UHGV virus genome: UHGV-0120185 | DNA: 18,367 nucleotides | Strand: one strand, 5' to 3' | From: a virus | In this document: positions 2,714-18,214 of the stretch, in pieces | Position numbering within the stretch: the first letter of the stretch is position 1 | Layout: every line of letters begins with the position of its first letter | Position numbers and translations under genes: made by a program | The notes under the pieces: model-generated | What the model was told of the DNA's origin: nothing | The model's input: only the letters and a program-made list of their open reading frames with translations | Databases searched by the model: none

Positions 2714-2914
2714 CTACTCCCCCCACAACTGAATCATTTCTCGTTTCTTCTTCTCCGGCTCCGGCATCTCCACTTCCTGCCCGGCGTCCAGAAATACCTG
2801 CTGACAGAGTCCGGGGTTGGCATCCAGCACCTTTTCGGTGACGCCCTGCGTCGTGCCGTAGTACCGGAAACAGAGCGAATCCACGGTGTCGCCTTCCAGT
2901 GCCTTCACTTTCAT
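2714..2914 (-). CDS. X: P2 gpX-like tail protein X (LysM-like)
   Basis: 'LEGDTVDSLCFRYYGTTQGVTEKVLDANPGL' matches the gpX family signature as recalled. 66 aa from internal Met; start overlaps the gpL stop by 1 nt. Confidence 0.75.
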   Translation of the reverse strand: MKVKALEGDTVDSLCFRYYGTTQGVTEKVLDANPGLCQQVFLDAGQEVEMPEPEKKKREMIQLWGE

Positions 2915-3417
2915 CAGCACAACTCCGCAAAGATTCGCGGGCGGCACAGAATGTCAGAGATGGCCCAGCTCACATCACGCCACAAATCCGATGTCTGTAT
3001 ATCCAGAGCGTCCGCCCGGCGGTCGCCCTTGTCCGTTGTGTCTGCATCACGATAACGCTCCAGAATCAGGGCGCGCGTGGCGGTATAAACAGCATTGCGC
3101 CAGTGCCAGAGATTGACGCTTTCTCCGTTAATTACAGGGGCCGGAACATCGGCCAGCGTCTGATGGCCAGCCGCCTGCTGTTCCTGCTGCCACGCTTCCA
3201 GCTCGCGGGTAACGTGTGCCACGGCCCCGGTGGCGGTATGCAGCAGGCGGGAGGTGGTCACACGGCCCGGCAGTCGTACCGCCAGACGCAGCTCACGCAG
3301 CACAATATCCGGCCAGAATGCACCCGCTGAAATACGGGTATCACCATCATCGGTATCGGTGATGTCGTCCTCTGCGGGTCCGGGGTTGGTTCTGGCAACC
3401 ATACTCATGGGGTTCAC
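2914..3417 (-). CDS. L: P2 gpL-like head completion/stabilisation protein
   Basis: 'LADVPAPVINGES', 'ERYRDADTTDKGDRRADALD', 'DLWRDVSWAISDI' align with P2 gpL as recalled. RBS AGGAG 8 nt upstream of ATG at 3417. Confidence 0.8.
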   Translation of the reverse strand: MNPMSMVARTNPGPAEDDITDTDDGDTRISAGAFWPDIVLRELRLAVRLPGRVTTSRLLHTATGAVAHVTRELEAWQQEQQAAGHQTLADVPAPVINGESVNLWHWRNAVYTATRALILERYRDADTTDKGDRRADALDIQTSDLWRDVSWAISDILCRPRIFAELC

Positions 3418-3509: not shown

Positions 3510-3977
3510 TTAACCGCGCTTCGCCTTCTGCGTCGCGGTGGTTTTTCGTGTTGCAGGCTTCCGCGTTGTCTTTTTACTTTTGCTGCTTTCGTCCTGCGCC
3601 TGCGGTGTGCTGGCATCTTCTGGTGCGGCTGCGGAATCGGCTTTTTTCAGGGCGCGGGAAAGGGTTGCAATCTCGCGTTTCACACCTGCGTTCGGGTTAC
3701 GGCGTTTGATGCCGTCATAACTGCTATTCGTGCGCGCAATTGGCCCGGTGGTGTCCAGGAGGATTTTTTCGCCTTTCTGGTCGGTCACGCCGATCACGTT
3801 AATTCTTTTCGTAAATTCGGTACTTTCCTTTGAGGCGTTTTCAAAACGCTGCTGCACCGCGGGTTCCACGGTAAATCGCGATACCAGTGCAGATACCGGG
3901 ATATTGTTAAGCGACGCCTGCTGCGCCATATAGCAACCCAGCTTGTTGCGGGTAATATCTGACATCACCAGATTCAT
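3510..3977 (-). pseudogene. in-frame fusion of capsid gpN N-terminus with small terminase gpM C-terminus (deletion remnant)
   Basis: Residues ~30-95 ('FTVEPAVQQRFENASKESTEFTKRINVIGVTDQKGEKILLDTTGPIARTN') match the N-terminal region of P2 major capsid gpN. Residues ~105-155 ('AGVKREIATLSRALK...TTRKPATRKTTATQKAKRG') match the basic C-terminal tail of gpM. Only 155 aa, where N plus M normally span about 600 aa. Confidence 0.6.
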
Positions 3978-7841: not shown

Positions 7842-8213
7842 CTCTCCAGCTCCTGTATCAATCAGATAATTTCACGACGCTTTCCTGCTGATTGCCATCA
7901 TCGACAGTCAGACTCTTACGCAATCCCACCGCGTTGACTGCATGTTCTCGCCGTCTCAGTGCGATTTTGACGGCCTTACCTTTCACCCCATCAAATCAAA
8001 AGCCCTCACGTCTTTTTCACGCTCAGCGTGAGAAATACAGCCATTCTGTTGTATCTCTGCGACATCGTTCAGGGAATGCTATTTACCCCCTGAAACGCGG
8101 GCTGTTCCCCCGTCACCTGCGCGCAGAAAAAACGCGTTTTTTTGTGCACGCACGGATCCCTGACGGATCCAGCCGCCACGCGGGCCGGAAGGGCAAAAAG
8201 TCGTTCAAAAAAA

Positions 8214-8240
8214 TTGTGCAAATTTGTGCACTATTGTGCA
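8214..8240. repeat. three direct TTGTGCA repeats phased at exactly 10 bp
   Basis: TTGTGCA at 8214-8220, 8224-8230 and 8234-8240, read directly. Confidence 0.55.
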
Positions 8241-8250
8241 TTGAAATAAA

Positions 8251-8271
8251 CGCCCTGGAAGAGGGCGTTTT
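8251..8271 (-). terminator. rho-independent-like terminator for the minus-strand accessory operon (possibly bidirectional)
   Basis: Hairpin CGCCCT-ggaag-AGGGCG 14 nt after the stop of the 112-aa gene, with T-rich tracts on both sides. Confidence 0.5.
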
Positions 8272-8280
8272 GGCTCATTT

Positions 8281-8619
8281 CTATAGCTTTGATGCAGGCT
8301 GGGCTAGGTCTCCTTTGATGCCAGTGTTTACAACCTGACAAGCCTCTTTGAGTACCCAGTCAACAGCGTCTTTCCATGCTCCGGTTTCGGCTGGCGGATT
8401 CTCACGCTTTACCAGTTCATAGAATCGTACTGCTCTAACCAGTCCATCTGACGGTTTTGCCTGTAGTGCAGCCTGAGCTATGCGGTATGCCTGGAGCATA
8501 CGGGCGTCGTTGATATCCATTCCGAACGGAATTTCTGATGATTGTGATTCTGCATCTTCAAGCCTGGCAATTTCTTTACGTAAAAAGTATTTCAACTCTT
8601 GTTTTTGTTTTCTGTTCAT
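8281..8619 (-). CDS. hypothetical protein (112 aa), partner of the ClpX-zinc-ribbon-like protein
   Basis: ATG overlaps the upstream gene's stop (ATGA), followed by the terminator. No family recognised. Confidence 0.55.
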
Positions 8620-8948
8620 GCGTTTTTTCCCTTTTTGTCTGTCACTTCTCTCCTGATAATTTCATTGCACAAATCCACGCACTCATTGCAGATGCAAACA
8701 GACGGTCCGGCAATCACCTTTGTGACTTCGTACTGAGATTTATTGCAGAAGCTGCAATAAATCGTCTCCTCGCCTGAAGTCCATGTTTTGCTGGTTTCGC
8801 CAGACATCAGTTGTTTGAGGTCTTTTTCACGACGAAGAACTATCTGGCCACATTCAGCTATTTTTTGGATGTTGACATTTTCTTCTTTCGCCAGCGCTTC
8901 CATCCGCTCAATCAGTCGCTGCGCTTTTTCTCTGTCAATGTGTTGCAT
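8616..8948 (-). CDS. small protein with C-terminal ClpX N-terminal-type C4 zinc-ribbon domain
   Basis: C-terminal '[39 protein letters not shown]' versus ClpX N-domain '[39 protein letters not shown]' as recalled (about 30/40 identical, all four Zn-ligand Cys kept). N-terminal ~60 aa unrelated and helical. RBS AAGGGGG before ATG at 8948. Confidence 0.75.
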
Positions 8949-8982
8949 TGTGTCCCCCTTGTTTATGTTCCCGGATTAAAGT

Positions 8983-9006
8983 CATCAGGGCGGATGCGCC
9001 CTGATG
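8983..9006. promoter_or_regulatory. perfect 10-bp-stem hairpin (CATCAGGGCG-gatg-CGCCCTGATG) between parR and the zinc-ribbon gene
   Basis: Read directly. The arm CGCCCTGAT recurs at 9026-9034 inside the parR 3' end. No U-tract on the coding strand. Confidence 0.35.
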
Positions 9007-9011
9007 TTGTG

Positions 9012-9323
9012 TTATTCGGGAAATAACGCCCTGATATTTCCGGCCATCCGACTGGTTATCTGTGAGGTTGGTACTGGCTGTGACGCGGGGCGTTCTGTCC
9101 TGGTTTGTGTCACTGATAACGCCTCATCGTCAGCCCATGCAGCCAGTCGGTAAGCCTCTGCCGGATTCATTTTCAGAAGTGCCAGCCCGGCCAGAAAAGC
9201 CACACGTTGGCCGCTTTTGCGGGCTTCTGGTGTAAGGCTGTCCAGCCAGGTGCATGCTTCGCCTTCGTTCTTGACGGCGGCGGGCTTCAGATAGAAACTT
9301 ATCCGTCTGGTTGGTGTCGTCAT
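9012..9323 (-). CDS. parR: ParR-like centromere-binding protein (type II partition)
   Basis: 103 aa from internal Met 4 nt after the parM stop, RBS AAGGAG. 'RRISFYLKP...LDSL...RVAFLAGLALLKMNP...NIRALFPE' parallels plasmid R1 ParR as recalled. Confidence 0.7.
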   Translation of the reverse strand: MTTPTRRISFYLKPAAVKNEGEACTWLDSLTPEARKSGQRVAFLAGLALLKMNPAEAYRLAAWADDEALSVTQTRTERPASQPVPTSQITSRMAGNIRALFPE

Positions 9324-9327
9324 TGGT

Positions 9328-10287
9328 TTACTCCTTGTCCATTGCGTACAGCCCATTAACCAGAGCAAACTGTGGCACCCCGTCCGCGATGAAAGTCGCA
9401 TTAACTCCGCAGGCTTCGCGGATAGCGGGTGCCACAATCTCCGCCCCGCCACCGACAACCATCACCCGCCCGTAACCCGAAAAACCCGCCAGCGCGCGGA
9501 TCACTCGTTGTTTCAGTGTTTCTTCCTTTTCACGAATAACCGCCATCAGGCTGTCGTAATGCGCGTCATTGTGGATGTGCTGGCGCAGCCAGGCTTCATC
9601 ATGGCGATGTTCGATAATGGTATTGGCGATGTGGTGACTGGTGCGCATACCGTTAGTGGCCATCACCGACAGTACGGCATCGGCCATCAGAGAAACGCCT
9701 ACGTGTGGATCGCAAAACACCTGGCTGATACCTGCCAGTTGCCCCTGAACCTTTGCCACATCCAGCGTGGTTCCGCCCAAATCCACAATCAGCAGGGATT
9801 CAAACGGACTCATGTCAGCCAGTGCCTTAAAGCCAGCCGGAATGGATTCAGGCATAACCCGCACGTTACGGATAGTGAATGCTTCGCCGTTCTGGTACTC
9901 CACCGGGCGCATAACGTTCGCTTTTTTGCGGTTGATGTTGGCCATGTCCGGCTGTGCGTTTGTGTCGAAATACTCGCTCAGTGGCAGGGTGACAACCACA
10001 TCCACCTCCTGTGGCGTGATGCCTGATTTGACCAGCGCGTGATGAATGGCAATTACATTCACATCGCTGTACTGGTATTGCGTGTCGGTCGTCTGGACAA
10101 ATCGATCGCTGACCGGATCAAAACCATAGCGCACGCCATCAAGCATGTAGTTTGCGGGCTGCATGCCACCGAACGGCGCAGACCATTCCGATTTGAAGCT
10201 GTTCGGGCTGATGGCGTTGCGGCGTTCGCCGTTCTCAGTCCATGCCAGCTTGATGTTGGTGGAGCCGTCGTCGATACAAATTTTCAT
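9328..10287 (-). CDS. parM: ParM-like actin-type partition ATPase
   Basis: 'MKICIDDGSTNIKLAW', 'YQYSDVNVIAIHHAL', 'RKKANV', 'VMPESIPAGF', 'LLIVDLGGTTLDV', 'VMVVGGGAE', 'ALVNGLY' are collinear with plasmid R1 ParM/StbA as recalled. RBS AAGGA before ATG. Confidence 0.9.
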   Translation of the reverse strand: MKICIDDGSTNIKLAWTENGERRNAISPNSFKSEWSAPFGGMQPANYMLDGVRYGFDPVSDRFVQTTDTQYQYSDVNVIAIHHALVKSGITPQEVDVVVTLPLSEYFDTNAQPDMANINRKKANVMRPVEYQNGEAFTIRNVRVMPESIPAGFKALADMSPFESLLIVDLGGTTLDVAKVQGQLAGISQVFCDPHVGVSLMADAVLSVMATNGMRTSHHIANTIIEHRHDEAWLRQHIHNDAHYDSLMAVIREKEETLKQRVIRALAGFSGYGRVMVVGGGAEIVAPAIREACGVNATFIADGVPQFALVNGLYAMDKE

Positions 10288-10316
10288 GTCGATTTTCCTT
10301 ATGTTGATTAATTAAT

Positions 10317-13699: not shown

Positions 13700-14146
13700 T
13701 CATGCTCTGATTTCCCTCAGTAGCTGGTTGAACATCTGGGTTAGTGGGTTGCTACACCCAAACGGCATCGGGTTTACCTGATAAGAAAAGCGACCGCCTG
13801 TTTTGCGCTCTTTTCTTATGACTGAACCGCTGCGCCAGAGACGGCGTAGCTCCGCATTAATGGTTGTGGTTGGTGTATTCAGTGCTGCGGCGATTTCTCC
13901 ACCGCTACAACCCGGATTGGCAGCGATGTAGTCCAGAATGGTCATCTGCGTGACTCCTGTACCTGTCTGATAAGATTTACCTGCACCACGTTGGTGGCGC
14001 AAAAAGTAAGTGCCGTCAGTGAGATAGATGTGATATGCATCCTTTTCTGAACGGTGTTTGTCGATTGTGGTAATCAGGCGTTCGTCAACTTCGTATTCAC
14101 GTCCTTTGGAGGTGAAACGAACGACGGGAAAATGCTTAATTGCCAT
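13700..14146 (-). CDS. hypothetical early-operon protein with putative winged-helix DNA-binding region (148 aa)
   Basis: Start at internal Met (14146) with strong RBS AAGGAGG 5 nt upstream. 'MTILDYIAANPGCSGGEIAAALN...INAELRRLW' is HTH-like. Confidence 0.5.
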   Translation of the reverse strand: MAIKHFPVVRFTSKGREYEVDERLITTIDKHRSEKDAYHIYLTDGTYFLRHQRGAGKSYQTGTGVTQMTILDYIAANPGCSGGEIAAALNTPTTTINAELRRLWRSGSVIRKERKTGGRFSYQVNPMPFGCSNPLTQMFNQLLREIRA

Positions 14147-14232
14147 TACGCCTCCTTGGCGTGTGCGAATACCTCCGCGAATGCGGATTGTTTTCACATT
14201 TTCTTATTTAACCTGGGGTCTTATTTGCGCGG

Positions 14233-15257: not shown

Positions 15258-15461
15258 TTAGCTGTTAGCCAAAGCGTCTTTTAACATCGCCACAAGGTTT
15301 ACTTCAGGCTTTTCCATTTTGGCGCGTTTGGGTCGGATAATAATTCGACCGTCAGCCAACATCTTTTTGCATGTATTAAGAGGGATACCTGTTATCTCTG
15401 CATATTTCTGCAGGGATACATAGGGGGCATTCACATTGATATTGATGGTTATACCTGACAT
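15258..15461 (-). CDS. Cox/Apl/AlpA-like small HTH excisionase-regulator
   Basis: 67 aa; 'LQKYAEITGIPLNTCKKMLADGRIIIRP' resembles the Cox/AlpA HTH. Early position in the operon divergent from the repressor, as P2 cox. Confidence 0.55.
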   Translation of the reverse strand: MSGITININVNAPYVSLQKYAEITGIPLNTCKKMLADGRIIIRPKRAKMEKPEVNLVAMLKDALANS

Positions 15462-15477
15462 CCCACTAGCCTCCTGA

Positions 15478-15684
15478 TCAGGAAGATTTGTTTTGTTCTT
15501 TCTGGGTTAGCTCTAGGCCGCGAAGGAAGATCATGCGCGCCATGTTAGAGGATGAGCGTTGTTCTTTAGCTGCCATTTCATCAATGACGGCTCGCTCCTC
15601 GAGGGACAGCCGAAGTGCCAGTCTTGGACCTGTGGCGGTGTTACGCGGAATGCGTGATCTGGAATCGTGAAGAACTTGTTTCAT
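15478..15684 (-). CDS. small putative ribbon-helix-helix-like DNA-binding protein (68 aa), first gene of early operon
   Basis: 'LRLSLEERAVIDEMAAKEQRSSSNMARMIFLRGL' has an RHH-like beta-alpha-alpha pattern. Begins at the switch region. Confidence 0.45.
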   Translation of the reverse strand: MKQVLHDSRSRIPRNTATGPRLALRLSLEERAVIDEMAAKEQRSSSNMARMIFLRGLELTQKEQNKSS

Positions 15685-15759
15685 AGTGGTATATTGTGAT
15701 CATCTAATAGCTCGTGAAATCATTTTGGTATCAAAAAAGATACCTGTCAAGGTTTTTGT
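15685..15759. promoter_or_regulatory. lysis-lysogeny switch region with divergent promoters and operator-like palindromes
   Basis: 75-bp gap between divergent genes. Palindrome GGTATC-N6-GATACC at 15727-15744; TGATCA at 15697-15702; TATATT at 15690-15695; TTGACA on the minus strand (15750-15745) next to the palindrome. Confidence 0.5.
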
Positions 15760-16164
15760 ATGAAAAATGATATTGGTCAGCGGTTGCGTGAGGAAAGGGA
15801 AAGATTGGGACTTAGTCAAGTTGCCATGAGCGACATTGGTGGAGTCAAAAAGCTAACTCAGCTTAGATATGAGAAAGGAGATAGCTTTCCTGATGCTGCG
15901 TATTTGGCAGCGCTGTCTCGTTTTGGCCTTGATGTTCAGTATGTTGTGTTGGGAATTCACTCACCTGAAACTTATAACGATGATGAGCAGGAGTTGATTA
16001 CTCGCTTTCGAGCAGCTTCGTTAGATGTGAAAAATGCGGTGATTGGGGCTTTAAAAGGTGCGATCAGTGAAAAGGAAACTCAGCCATCAGGACGTGAGTT
16101 AAATATTTCTGGTGGTAATAACCGTATCGCTGGTCGTGACTATAACGAAACTAAGGGTAGGTGA
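15760..16164 (+). CDS. XRE-family HTH immunity repressor (C/CI-equivalent)
   Basis: N-terminal HTH 'RLREERERLGLSQVAMSDIGGVKKLTQLRYEKGDSFPDAAYLAALSRFGLDV'. Divergent from the Cox-like gene and upstream of int, as P2 C. Confidence 0.8.
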   Translation: MKNDIGQRLREERERLGLSQVAMSDIGGVKKLTQLRYEKGDSFPDAAYLAALSRFGLDVQYVVLGIHSPETYNDDEQELITRFRAASLDVKNAVIGALKGAISEKETQPSGRELNISGGNNRIAGRDYNETKGR

Positions 16165-16179
16165 TAGTAGGGAGGTGAC

Positions 16180-16830
16180 ATGGCCGTCAACTCAAACGGT
16201 TCAAACAATCGCGTTGCTGGGCGTGATTTTCACGAAAAGAATATTCAGATAGAGCGATATGATGGTTCTCAGACCGTCAATATCGCAATCCCTTCGAATA
16301 ATGATGATGACGATCGCCCTTTGCTTAAGGCTCAGCGTAAGGAGCTAAATAGCTTGGTTGCTGCTATTGCAGAAGCTAGCAATACTGAAGCGTTTATTAT
16401 TTGGCAAAAAGTACATGCGGAGATTGGTGTAGCTGGTATTGATGATATGACAGTAAATCAATATAAAACAGCGGAGAGTTTTCTGCATGCAATGCTTGAG
16501 CGATGTAAAGATCATGATGCCTGTAAGGCTCTTGTAAGTTTATTACTACGTAACAGTGAAGACTGTGGACTTCGACAAAAACTTCTGCGGTATTGCCATA
16601 TCAATTTCGGTACAGGACGTTTAAACGATCTTACTCGTTCTCAGTTACAGTCTGCATTGTCGTGGTTAGAGCAACAATCGGCATCAAGCCACACAGAGAG
16701 TTCGACCTTACCAGAAGTCCGACTTCGTGCTTCAGAATTAATCCGACTTTATCCAAAAGAAATAATATTCTTTATCTGCGTAGGGGTTTTGGTAGGCGGT
16801 GTCATTTCTAGGGCGTTTTTTAATTTGTAA
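16180..16830 (+). CDS. tail-anchored membrane protein of unknown function (216 aa), lysogeny-operon moron
   Basis: Strong RBS GGGAGG before ATG. Single C-terminal TM 'IIFFICVGVLVGGVISRAFF'; acidic DDDD stretch. N-terminus repeats the repressor C-terminal motif. AT-rich relative to the backbone. Confidence 0.65.
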   Translation: MAVNSNGSNNRVAGRDFHEKNIQIERYDGSQTVNIAIPSNNDDDDRPLLKAQRKELNSLVAAIAEASNTEAFIIWQKVHAEIGVAGIDDMTVNQYKTAESFLHAMLERCKDHDACKALVSLLLRNSEDCGLRQKLLRYCHINFGTGRLNDLTRSQLQSALSWLEQQSASSHTESSTLPEVRLRASELIRLYPKEIIFFICVGVLVGGVISRAFFNL

Positions 16831-16859
16831 TCTTACTTGAGCTAAATTGAGGTAATGAT

Positions 16860-17207
16860 ATGAAAGTAAAAAAGGTTCAACTATTAGTTACTTTTTTATC
16901 TATGTTTTCTTTTTCCGCCGTCGCAATGCCTTTTAAAACTATTGAACGTGAGAGTTTCAATGGGGTATGGCCATTTAATACTGATGAGGTTCAATTACAG
17001 TGTCTTGATGGTAATCCTTATGTGATGAATTTTGACGATAATAAGTTATATGCACTTACAGGTTTGGCTCGAATAAAAGGTAAAACATTTGGTGCGTTAC
17101 CGTTAGATAACAATAATCCATTTTGGCTAGATAATGATGCCGCCCCAGGGTTAAAAAAGAGTCTGGGGGATGTCACTAAGGCTGCATTTGATTTATGTGA
17201 TAAGTAA
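16860..17207 (+). CDS. secreted/periplasmic small protein of unknown function (115 aa), lysogeny-operon moron
   Basis: Signal peptide 'MKVKKVQLLVTFLSMFSFSAVA' with an AVA cleavage site; two Cys in the mature part. RBS GAGGT. Very AT-rich. Confidence 0.65.
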   Translation: MKVKKVQLLVTFLSMFSFSAVAMPFKTIERESFNGVWPFNTDEVQLQCLDGNPYVMNFDDNKLYALTGLARIKGKTFGALPLDNNNPFWLDNDAAPGLKKSLGDVTKAAFDLCDK

Positions 17208-17212
17208 CTAAA

Positions 17213-18214
17213 ATGTCGGTTCGTAAGATTCCATCAGGTAAATGGCTTTGCGAATGTTATCCCTACGGGGCATCGGGAAAACGCATTCGTAAACAGTTTG
17301 CGACAAAAAGTGAGGCGCTCTCTTATGAGCGCCGTTTAATGAATAGTAGAGTTGGAGACGAGTTTCAAGATGGTTCTGGTCCTCGTCTTTCTGAGTTGAT
17401 TGCTCGTTGGTTTGAGATGTACGGTAAAACCTTGTCCTCTGGTGCAGAGCGCAAAGTCAAACTTGAGGCGATTTGTTCCAGGCTGGGAGATCCATTTGCT
17501 TCTCAGTTTGACAAAAATATGTTTGCTACTTATCGGGAAAGAAGGCTATCAGGAGAATGGAATCCCAAGGGGAAGAAAAAACTTAGTGAAGCAACCGTTA
17601 ATCGCGAGCAGTCATATCTACATGCTGTTTTTGCCGAACTGAAGCGCCTTGGGGAGTGGTCTGGTGAAAACCCCCTGACTGGTATTCGCAAGTTTCGTGA
17701 GGAAGAAAAGGAACTGGCGTTTCTGTATGTAGATGAGATTGAACGCCTTCTGATTGCGTGTGATGAGTCACGGAATAAAGATTTGGGGGTTGTTGTCCGT
17801 ATTGGGCTTGCGACGGGTGCTCGGTGGAGTGAAGCAGAAGGATTAAAGCAATCTCAAGTACTGCCCGGTCGAATCACATTTGTTAAAACTAAAGGAAAGA
17901 AGAACCGCACTGTACCGATTTCACCTCAATTGCAGGCTATGCTTCCTAAAAAACGAGGAGCGCTATTTTCACCATGTTATGAGGCTTTTGACGCTGCAAT
18001 TAAGAGAGCGAAGATCGAGCTTCCTGATGGGCAATTAACTCATGTGCTACGTCACACGTTTGCCAGTCATTTTATGATGCGGGGCGGAAATATTCTTGTG
18101 TTGCAAAAAATACTGGGGCATAGCGATATAAAAATGACTATGCGTTATGCGCATTTTGCTCCAGGTCATTTAGAGGCTGCTGTTGAATTGAACCCTTTTG
18201 ACAATAGAGGGTAA
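17213..18214 (+). CDS. int: P2-type tyrosine integrase
   Basis: 'LATGARWSEA', 'FVKTKGKKNRTVPIS', 'HVLRHTFASHFMMRGGNILVLQKILGHSDIKMTMRYAHFAP', 'LNP' match the P2 Int catalytic region as recalled (R, H-x-x-R, Y). Confidence 0.92.
   Translation: MSVRKIPSGKWLCECYPYGASGKRIRKQFATKSEALSYERRLMNSRVGDEFQDGSGPRLSELIARWFEMYGKTLSSGAERKVKLEAICSRLGDPFASQFDKNMFATYRERRLSGEWNPKGKKKLSEATVNREQSYLHAVFAELKRLGEWSGENPLTGIRKFREEEKELAFLYVDEIERLLIACDESRNKDLGVVVRIGLATGARWSEAEGLKQSQVLPGRITFVKTKGKKNRTVPISPQLQAMLPKKRGALFSPCYEAFDAAIKRAKIELPDGQLTHVLRHTFASHFMMRGGNILVLQKILGHSDIKMTMRYAHFAPGHLEAAVELNPFDNRG

Follow-up and report, generated by a model that had tools for sequence, protein, structure and literature searches.

The 18,367-nucleotide stretch of DNA from the virus genome UHGV-0120185 (hereafter the window, meaning the whole of this stretch) ends in a group of four genes on the plus strand: the gene for a helix-turn-helix (HTH) repressor, two open reading frames (ORFs) of 216 and 115 codons designated ORF216 and ORF115, and the gene for a P2-type tyrosine integrase (int). 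On balance, our analysis inclines toward the view that this interval is one lysogeny operon whose two middle genes are unlike in kind, ORF216 being a component of the immunity system and ORF115 being cargo. The evidence centers on a short motif that is found both at the C-terminus of the repressor (the tail) and at the N-terminus of the ORF216 protein (the head). The initial annotation of the region, made from the sequence alone, had placed two co-oriented ORFs of these lengths between repressor and int, and this was confirmed: all four genes are on the plus strand, and both ORFs have good Shine-Dalgarno sites, GGGAGG for ORF216 and GAGG for ORF115. The start that it gave for the inserted pair, position 15760, was found to be the start of the repressor gene, and ORF216 starts at 16180.

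The tail and head motifs are 15–20 residues long and G/N-rich (Table 1). In the window, the repressor ends in ...ELNISGGNNRIAGRDYNETKGR and the ORF216 protein starts with MAVNSNGSNNRVAGRDFHEKNIQ..., and the two motifs are identical at 10 of 16 residues. When all six frames of the window were scanned, the motif turned up only twice, once in the repressor tail and once in the ORF216 head. Six of the 10 identical residues are specified by different codons, and nucleotide identity amounts to 29/48. Because the codons differ, the likeness is conserved at the protein level. Gene conversion as a source of the identity was ruled out by these same codon and nucleotide differences, and read-through or fusion of the two genes was ruled out by the stop codons TGA TAG TAG lying between them; the window and 9 of 17 genome loci have both genes in one reading frame, and the other 8 have them in different frames.

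Two consensus forms of the motif were found, GxxNR(V/I)AGRD(F/Y)xE and VGQx(V/I)AGD(V/I)xN, and the forms present in particular lineages and pairs are listed in Table 1. The tail was kept at the C-terminus of the repressor family in all loci examined, and residues G7, A13 and D16 of the head were near-invariant across 43 diverse family members. The motif was retained where the repressors were 30–41% and the partners 26–33% identical. Local-alignment scores of cognate tail and head pairs ranged from 37 to 67 compared to means of approximately 20 for shuffled sequences, and the window pair scored 62 compared to 20. Not one of 2000 shuffles scored as high as the real sequences for six of the seven pairs, and for the seventh the fraction doing so was 0.0025. 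When the window tail was aligned with orthologous tails of other motif classes instead of with its own head, the scores were only 16–27. When the pairs of six lineages were permuted, 4 of the 720 arrangements reached the observed total. These findings show that tail and head are held alike by selection.

Approximately 130 loci, retrieved either via ORF216 or via the repressor, were compared for gene order. In 17 of 17 genome loci (including Klebsiella, Escherichia, Rosenbergiella, Mixta, Izhakiella, Enterobacter, Kosakonia, Buttiauxella, Yersinia, Hafnia and Serratia), the gene of the ORF216 family, termed Flk_N after its Pfam domain, lay 8–40 nt past an HTH gene of 126–134 aa, and a P2-type int came next. 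The same arrangement was found in all of approximately 80 IMG/VR loci, and an HTH gene with the tail motif stood upstream in all of the approximately 100 loci retrieved via ORF216. Retrieval via the repressor yielded 33 divergent loci, all 33 of which had a downstream gene with a matching head; this gene was Flk_N by hidden Markov model in 27. The non-Flk_N partners that follow the repressor were all membrane proteins beginning with a motif matched to that of the repressor, and they differ from each other in length and in the number of transmembrane (TM) segments (Table 1). The pair was also present in Mu-like transposable phages, which carry an rve transposase and a Ner-like gene and have a holin and SLT downstream, and in a second P2-like group; in these loci the Flk_N gene again comes after an XRE-HTH gene that is divergent from the early operon.

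A moron is recognized by its absence or replacement among relatives, and neither was observed for ORF216, since a motif-bearing membrane gene occupied its position in all loci examined. Because of this constant presence, of a guanine-plus-cytosine (GC) content like that of its neighbors, and of the co-varying motif that it has in common with the repressor, we consider it very likely that the repressor has in ORF216 a conserved partner and that this gene is not an insertion. The initial annotation had named, as a finding that would speak against its two "morons", that they are conserved core genes with known housekeeping roles; ORF216 does belong to the conserved core of the lineage, but no housekeeping role is known for it. 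In locus L029 a third gene in the row (707–1003) specifies a membrane protein of 98 aa that begins with a further copy of the motif, VTVVGDNNITASGDLNIG, and some modules may have three motif-bearing members.

The 134-aa HTH protein is annotated in strain Sakai, where its locus is ECs_2620 and that of ORF216 is ECs_2619, as "phage repressor protein", and its position and family point to the same role. It lacks a peptidase or autocleavage domain (Pfam) and is therefore SOS-independent. In published data on O157 lysates the repressor was detected, including in an insoluble density-gradient fraction, which is compatible, if weakly, with membrane association or aggregation.

The initial annotation recognized no family for either ORF product, and this did not hold: ORF216 belongs to PF27202 (Flk_N) and phrog_5825, the latter aligning to it end to end, and ORF115 belongs to PF10709 and phrog_2950. 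The PF27202 assignment was precomputed on a near-identical ORF216 cluster and on homologues. Among 1.84 billion proteins only 92 representatives of the Flk_N family remain at 50% identity, and most of this small family consists of short forms of 180–230 aa, which are of phage type and hold most of the family diversity. Long forms of 320–416 aa begin with MQPxSG like Flk and are without the N-terminal motif. The NCBIfam model for Flk (NF007987/PRK10715) aligned residues 35–166 of ORF216 with residues 18–149 of 339 (E=8e-16); the score of 58.3 bits is far under the equivalog cut-off of 353, and ORF216 is therefore not a full-length Flk. Chromosomal Flk may be derived from the short phage forms.

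An AlphaFold2 (AF2) model of ORF216 built with a 43-sequence alignment had a mean predicted local distance difference test (pLDDT) value of 86, whereas the single-sequence model (pLDDT 44) was unusable. Residues 1–44, which hold the head motif, were disordered (pLDDT approximately 50), and were followed by an all-helical domain and a C-terminal TM helix (Table 1). A hydrophobic C-terminus that stops a few residues before the stop codon is kept across the ORF216 family. From the model, ORF216 is predicted to be a tail-anchored, cytoplasm-facing inner-membrane protein, which is the topology that PMC13344023 describes for Flk. In its first part, the Flk_N domain is similar to three-helix modules that bind peptides or partner proteins, namely the C-terminal domain of Red-beta and NinB. 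A sequence search of the PDB with ORF216 gave no informative match, and only 5 of the 50,697 deposited phage genomes had a homologue, these hits coming from the degraded record of phage 520873 and from three Ralstonia phages. No functional study came up in the literature under Flk_N/PF27202 or under the O157 locus tags, and no paper on phage Flk_N was found with the terms used; the ORF216 family is catalogued in Pfam and PHROGs without a function. ORF216 is like Flk (Fluke/RflH) of Salmonella and E. coli in having a helical N-terminal domain of approximately 130 residues and a single C-terminal membrane anchor. In contrast to Flk, it is 216 aa rather than approximately 333 aa long, has no long linker, has the additional N-terminal motif, and is found in prophage lysogeny operons beside the repressor, including those of non-flagellate Klebsiella.

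We propose that ORF216 would act as the second, conserved component of a two-protein immunity module. In the most likely mechanism the matching tail and head peptides would pair with each other, either by beta-strand zippering or, more speculatively, by amyloid-like templating. The inner membrane would thereby anchor, or exert control over, a part of the repressor pool, and the switch of SOS-independent P2-like and Mu-like prophages would gain a membrane-located input or output. Exclusion or abortive infection is a possible output of such a repressor-coupled module. That the repressor and ORF216 are functionally coupled through the motif, whether directly or through a common partner, is probable. 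That they bind each other directly is suggested by the sequence comparison, with the balance standing about even, and that the coupling is amyloid-like is unlikely. It is likewise doubtful that tail and head form a matched, self-assembling signaling pair of the beta-zipper or amyloid type that switches, sequesters or uses repressors as a trigger at the membrane, with Flk as a domesticated relative.

The arrangement can be compared with amyloid signaling pairs such as fungal HET-S/NWD2, the bacterial BASS pairs and Bab/Agp (BASS11) of an E. coli prophage. In these pairs, as here, the genes are adjacent, one product ends and the other begins with a copy of a motif, this motif is approximately 15–25 aa long, G/N/Q-rich and predicted to be disordered, its two copies resemble each other more than they resemble those of other pairs, and one partner is membrane-targeted. 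Unlike those systems, the present one consists of an XRE-HTH repressor and a tail-anchored Flk_N protein rather than an NLR/STAND protein or large sensor and a Bell/HeLo pore-former, and the membrane protein has its motif at the N-terminus and not at the C-terminus. The motif also lies outside the described BASS families and is without the G-phi-Q-phi-G signature of RHIM (compared by eye). Small alternative partners with two TM segments do occur, yet the partners were not of the cell-death effector and NLR kind. As far as we found, an obligatory pairing with a repressor combined with a co-varying motif is undescribed.

How P2-like and Mu-like prophages with repressors that have no self-cleavage domain decide between silence and induction is poorly understood. 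If the peptides pair, the cell envelope would have a route to prophage immunity that can be tested directly, and the principle of matching terminal motifs would be extended from NLR-type immune systems to transcriptional repressors. If the amyloid reading were true, a lysogeny switch would for the first time be seen to use amyloid-type motif signaling. The module is present in approximately 9% of complete E. coli genomes, including those with Sp13/CP-933T, and is very common in Klebsiella pneumoniae.

Several observations weigh against an operon that joins an immunity pair to cargo. Direct binding of the repressor to ORF216 is a proposal drawn from sequence comparison, and AF2 assigns no fold to the motif. 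Within the VGQxxAGD class non-cognate pairs score as high as cognate ones, and the specificity therefore lies at the level of the motif class, with several pair-specific variants in addition, and not in every pair. In a distant subtype with an N-terminal extension (L118), the partial upstream gene is without a matching motif. The prophage of the window is defective, and its switch may no longer be under selection, though the operon is intact. On the cargo side, the role proposed for ORF115 is drawn entirely from its family by analogy, and a consensus scan found neither a promoter nor a terminator belonging to ORF115 itself, which is therefore not a textbook autonomous moron. Finally, matching motifs would also be expected if tail and head bind a common third factor.

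In that last case the third factor, for instance an antirepressor or a membrane or cytoplasmic protease, would recognize both peptides, and ORF216 would be a membrane-bound sink or competitor that sets the threshold of derepression. Lambda CIII acts as a competitor of this sort for CII at FtsH. One site recognizing both peptides would produce matching, co-varying motifs equally well, and a repressor without an autocleavage domain needs protein-mediated inactivation. A gene of the Tum-like "Derepression" family is present in the related prophage L007, and the three-helix modules that the first part of Flk_N resembles are partner-binding ones. However, the motif diverges strongly between phage lineages, with which a host factor such as a protease is not expected to co-vary, and the scan of the window revealed no candidate third factor that has or recognizes the motif. 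Moreover, partners with different cytoplasmic domains retain motif and anchor, which argues that the motif together with a membrane location is the conserved function. A common third factor thus accounts for the matching as well as direct pairing does and accounts less well for the divergence of the motif and for the conserved motif and anchor of the alternative partners; we give it a low probability. It is also improbable that ORF216 is a superinfection-exclusion or abortive-infection protein unlinked to the repressor, with ORF115 as a second gene of this kind. The place between repressor and int is typical of exclusion genes, and lysogeny modules carry several of them: lactococcal sie (Sie2009), ltp of Streptococcus thermophilus phage TP-J34, glo of Vibrio phage K139 and lambda rexAB. 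As with these genes, ORF216 and ORF115 would be expressed with the repressor in the lysogen and lie between repressor and integrase, and their products are placed in the membrane and the periplasm, respectively. The adjoining slot also holds defense-like cargo (BRCT/WYL-like proteins, TerB-like plus BRCT proteins weakly resembling PDC-S48, and a TIR_2 protein in a Mu-like relative), and some non-Flk_N partners are small proteins with two TM segments, like membrane effectors. An independent exclusion gene, however, would leave the motif shared with the repressor unexplained, and ORF216 was never absent, nor exchanged for a motif-less gene, while the repressor type was kept. Its GC content is like that of its neighbors, PADLOC gave zero matches for it or for ORF115 at E<=1, and it differs from the known exclusion genes in having no sequence or fold relationship to them and in being tied to one repressor family with which it has the motif in common, a link that is not known for those genes.

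The Flk-type N-terminal domain and tail-anchored topology could also mean that ORF216 acts on the flagellar type III export gate (FlhA/FlhB) and alters flagellar assembly in the lysogen, given that Flk contacted the cytoplasmic domain of FlhA in a two-hybrid assay (PMC13344023). The low score against the Flk model, the absence of the long linker and of the Flk N-terminus, and the absence of an NRVAGRD head from true Flk all speak against such mimicry, and the partner is sometimes a membrane protein other than Flk_N. Moreover, the gene is very common in prophages of K. pneumoniae (P0096 is indexed in 1158 blocks), a species that is normally non-flagellate. A Flk-like flagellar role is unlikely as a general function, and as the explanation of ORF216 we regard it as highly improbable. 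Equally far-fetched, in our estimation, is that the motif is a functionless relic of an ancient gene fission or tandem duplication and that ORF216 has an unrelated function. A relic would leave copies on either side of a gene boundary, as is seen here, and the two genes share a reading frame in the window and in about half of the genome loci. A relic would nevertheless decay independently in the two genes, whereas the copies change together between lineages and persist in pairs as diverged as those described above, and the synonymous differences point to selection on the protein. A fused HTH-Flk_N ancestor was sought among the 92 family representatives and none was found; a 336-aa protein with an internal match (P0198) begins like true Flk.

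ORF115, by its sequence features, is a YebY/DUF2511-family protein with a signal peptide, predicted to be periplasmic and to contain a C48–C113 pair. It scored 28.4 bits against PF10709 (cut-off 21) over residues 28–113, and it matched E. coli YebY (PDB 7n0j) with E=0.003 and approximately 31% identity over 80 residues, as counted on the printed alignment. Residues W37, C48 and C113 are at the positions of the conserved Trp and the stabilizing C48–C113 disulfide described for YebY (PMC8689200). These features, together with the signal peptide, are what it has in common with YebY of the AZY operon and with MlbQ; the difference lies in the degree of identity and in its location in a prophage cargo slot, next to a Flk_N gene and int and not beside yobA/yebZ. 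The AZY context is not required in the DUF2511 family, which is also found in contexts unrelated to yobA/yebZ (PMC8689200). A one-sentence remark, and not a study, has dealt with YebY genes that in Enterobacteriaceae are flanked by a XerD-like recombinase gene and a phage repressor gene of the CI type (PMC8689200). ORF115 thus adds a member to a known family, its context has already been mentioned in print, and the cargo gene alone is ordinary. In Enterobacterales its near homologues make up a phage-borne subgroup of just 18 clusters, and the relatives looked up in Klebsiella and Citrobacter occupied the same slot, with the Flk_N gene before and int after.

The ORF115 protein was detected in published data on lysates of strain 86-24, where it is flagged as periplasmic, and in the secretome of EDL933 with epithelial cells, with a SignalP prediction of SPI, and was absent in a type II secretion system mutant (PMC12962677, Table 3). 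The initial proposal that the inserted genes are expressed in the lysogen was therefore borne out for ORF115. In the proposed scheme ORF115 would be a Sec-exported cargo protein of the YebY/DUF2511 fold that lysogens produce from a transcript shared with the repressor. Most likely it serves in lysogenic conversion by binding an envelope component, as would be suggested by analogy with YebY, which damps YebZ-dependent copper import (PMC11923076), and with MlbQ, a homologue proposed to bind a lantibiotic (PMC8689200).

The content of the slot between the Flk_N gene and int was surveyed in the approximately 100 genome and IMG/VR loci retrieved via ORF216. Among closely related prophages it was empty or held one of at least 10 unrelated alternatives. 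These included YebY (18 distinct sequences), a BRCT plus WYL-like protein of 288–295 aa, a TerB-like plus BRCT protein of 291–298 aa with a weak match to PADLOC candidate PDC-S48 (E=3e-9), small acidic DUF8087 proteins, a pair consisting of a Zn-ribbon protein and a coiled-coil-TM protein, membrane proteins of 242–244 aa and secreted proteins of 126–137 aa. Near-identical Klebsiella prophages at pgsA/uvrC had the BRCT protein in some cases and YebY in others. ORF115 is swappable cargo and hence a moron in the evolutionary sense, because the slot is variable, its GC content is low and its protein is present in lysogens. The description of both ORFs as morons thus stands for ORF115 and falls for ORF216, the constant companion with the GC content of its neighbors.

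P2 itself has hotspots at the old/tin and Z/fun positions. Like the P2 morons old, tin and fun/Z and the contents of the P2 defense hotspots, ORF115 and its alternatives vary between relatives, and ORF115 has a low GC content. The present slot differs in lying inside the lysogeny operon, between the immunity pair and int, and in being without transcription signals of its own. It defines a previously unlisted cargo hotspot of P2-like phages, the contents of which are worth screening for defense or conversion functions. Example loci for the BRCT plus WYL-like and TerB-like plus BRCT proteins are L003 (5647–6513), L016 (4663–5538), L102 and L112, among others, and these proteins are candidates for defense functions. 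In Mu-like phages the repressor/Flk_N pair was followed by a lipoprotein and a TIR_2-domain protein in L026 (4597–5862) and by a 468-aa protein and a Dam-type methyltransferase in L027 (1256–3569). A hotspot after the immunity pair is therefore common to transposable phages as well.

The GC content was 0.437 for the repressor gene, 0.415 for ORF216, 0.353 for ORF115 (0.267 at third codon positions) and 0.450 for int. The early and lysogeny block as a whole (13.5–18.4 kb) had a GC content of 0.44, compared to 0.53–0.58 for the late and replication genes. ORF115 was the only one of the two ORFs that is compositionally foreign to its neighbors (flanks 0.415–0.450), whereas ORF216 fits the block. 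Judged against the immediate neighbors, the earlier statement that both ORFs are visibly more AT-rich than the backbone therefore applies to ORF115 and not to ORF216.

The gaps between the repressor gene, ORF216, ORF115 and int are 15, 29 and 5 nt, respectively, and a consensus-based scan of the plus strand from the repressor to int (15760–17213) found neither a terminator-like site nor a convincing promoter. Because of these short gaps and the lack of signals between the genes, the four genes would most simply be read as a single lysogeny operon. A promoter-like site was found on the minus strand at 15750–15722 (TTGACA, 17-nt spacer, CAAAAT), on the side of the early operon, and the promoter of the repressor itself was not picked up by the consensus scan. 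A 45-aa ORF of the RefSeq annotation on the plus strand, ECs_2621 (15533–15670), runs antisense within the Arc-like gene. The record of phage 520873 has the Arc-like gene and not ECs_2621, and a family match was found for the Arc-like reading only. The repressor promoter may lie within the overlap of the Arc-like gene and ECs_2621, which would give face-to-face transcription as in P2 and 186.

Table 1. Features of the repressor–int interval and its flank in the window, alternative partner genes, and tail and head motifs of related pairs
Feature	Position	Strand	Description
Cox-like regulator	15258..15461	-	phrog_575 (E=1e-27); divergent early operon
Arc-like regulator	15478..15684	-	phrog_3431 (E=3e-28); start of divergent early operon (15258..15684)
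HTH repressor	15760..16164	+	134 aa; Pfam HTH_31/HTH_3 at residues 5–55; PHROG transcriptional repressor families
Repressor C-terminal tail motif	16099..16149	+	LNISGGNNRIAGRDYNE, then basic end TKGR
ORF216	16180..16830	+	216 aa; phrog_5825 (E=7e-103); PF27202 Flk_N
ORF216 N-terminal head motif	16186..16236	+	VNSNGSNNRVAGRDFHE; within disordered residues 1–44
Flk_N helical domain	16312..16704	+	residues ~45–175; all-helical; pLDDT 94–98 (AF2 prediction)
ORF216 C-terminal TM anchor	16753..16824	+	predicted AF2 helix, residues 192–215
ORF115	16860..17207	+	115 aa; PF10709 DUF2511/YebY; phrog_2950 (E=9e-40)
ORF115 signal peptide	16860..16925	+	residues 1–22, MKVKK...SAVA|MP
P2-type tyrosine integrase	17213..18214	+	333 aa; Pfam Int_N and Phage_integrase; last operon gene
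Alternative partner, L171 and L178			151–152 aa; two TM segments
Alternative partner, L177			183 aa; multi-TM
Alternative partner, L183			118 aa; Zn-ribbon and two TM segments
Alternative partner, L187			341 aa; one TM segment
Motif pair, enterobacterial P2-like			tail VNVSGxGNRVAGRDYNENKK (C-terminal end); head MxVNSxGxxNRxAGRDFxEN
Motif pair, L026			tail QQFNGPVGTVTTGDVVNKE; head QQFHGAVEQVAAGDIKNF
Motif pair, L027			tail ISGGEFAARDIVNH; head IHDGQFAGRDIVNN
Motif pair, L030			tail QVFHGKVGQSIAGNVDQ; head QVFREDVGQAVAGDLVN
Motif pair, L031			tail VVHGDVGQTVKGNV; head IIHGDVGIVAEGDV
Motif pair, L190–195			tail GEGQIAGGNIYT; head TAEQIAGRDIYN
Motif pair, L177			tail GNNNRTAGRDY; head GEGNRTAGEVY
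Pair-specific variant			tail GQIAGGNIY; head EQIAGRDIY
Pair-specific variant			tail EFAARDIVNH; head QFAGRDIVNN
Pair-specific variant			tail QVFHGKVGQSIAGN; head QVFREDVGQAVAGD

The window was identified as the int-proximal 18 kb of a P2-like prophage, with terminase, portal, scaffold, GPA replication protein and P2-type integrase genes, and corresponds to prophage Sp13/CP-933T of E. coli O157:H7 (Sp13 in strain Sakai). Many E. coli genomes carry 100% identical prophages, with the integration site beside yecA, the host gene found past the integrase in matching genomes. No tRNA was found at the attachment junction at this end of the window. Both ORF216 and ORF115 were present in 505–525 of 5426 complete E. 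coli genomes (approximately 9%), nearly all at an identity of at least 95%.

In the late region, a 155-aa ORF on the minus strand (3510–3977), seen together with 2914–3417 and 2388–2930, was found to be a fusion of capsid and small-terminase genes. Approximately 100 N-terminal residues correspond to the P2-type major capsid protein (phrog_70 positions 1–92 of 345), and the last 60 or so residues correspond to the small terminase subunit (phrog_5997 positions 110–162 of 162). From these alignments the fusion looks like the product of an in-frame deletion of approximately 1.2 kb, and a prophage of the Sp13/CP-933T type should therefore fail to make capsids. The lysogeny operon is still intact in hundreds of genomes despite the fusion. 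The deposited Escherichia phage 520873 (NC_049344.1/CP025923.1; L002, 3765–5806) was 98% identical to the window in the region of the interval. Its ORF216 homologue is in three pieces and unannotated, and its integrase is split into two coding sequences; the record is that of a decaying prophage.

Another minus-strand ORF, of 165 aa (13700–14197), has a MarR-type winged-helix domain at residues 79–136. As called from a GTG start it is probably over-extended, the RefSeq call for the winged HTH gene being far shorter (246 nt). Between the portal and GPA genes, where P2 has old and tin, the interval 7890–10290 contains a gene for a ParM actin-like segregation protein (9328–10287), a gene for a partition protein (9012–9458) and three small unassigned ORFs, which represent a putative plasmid-type partition module within an integrated P2-like prophage.

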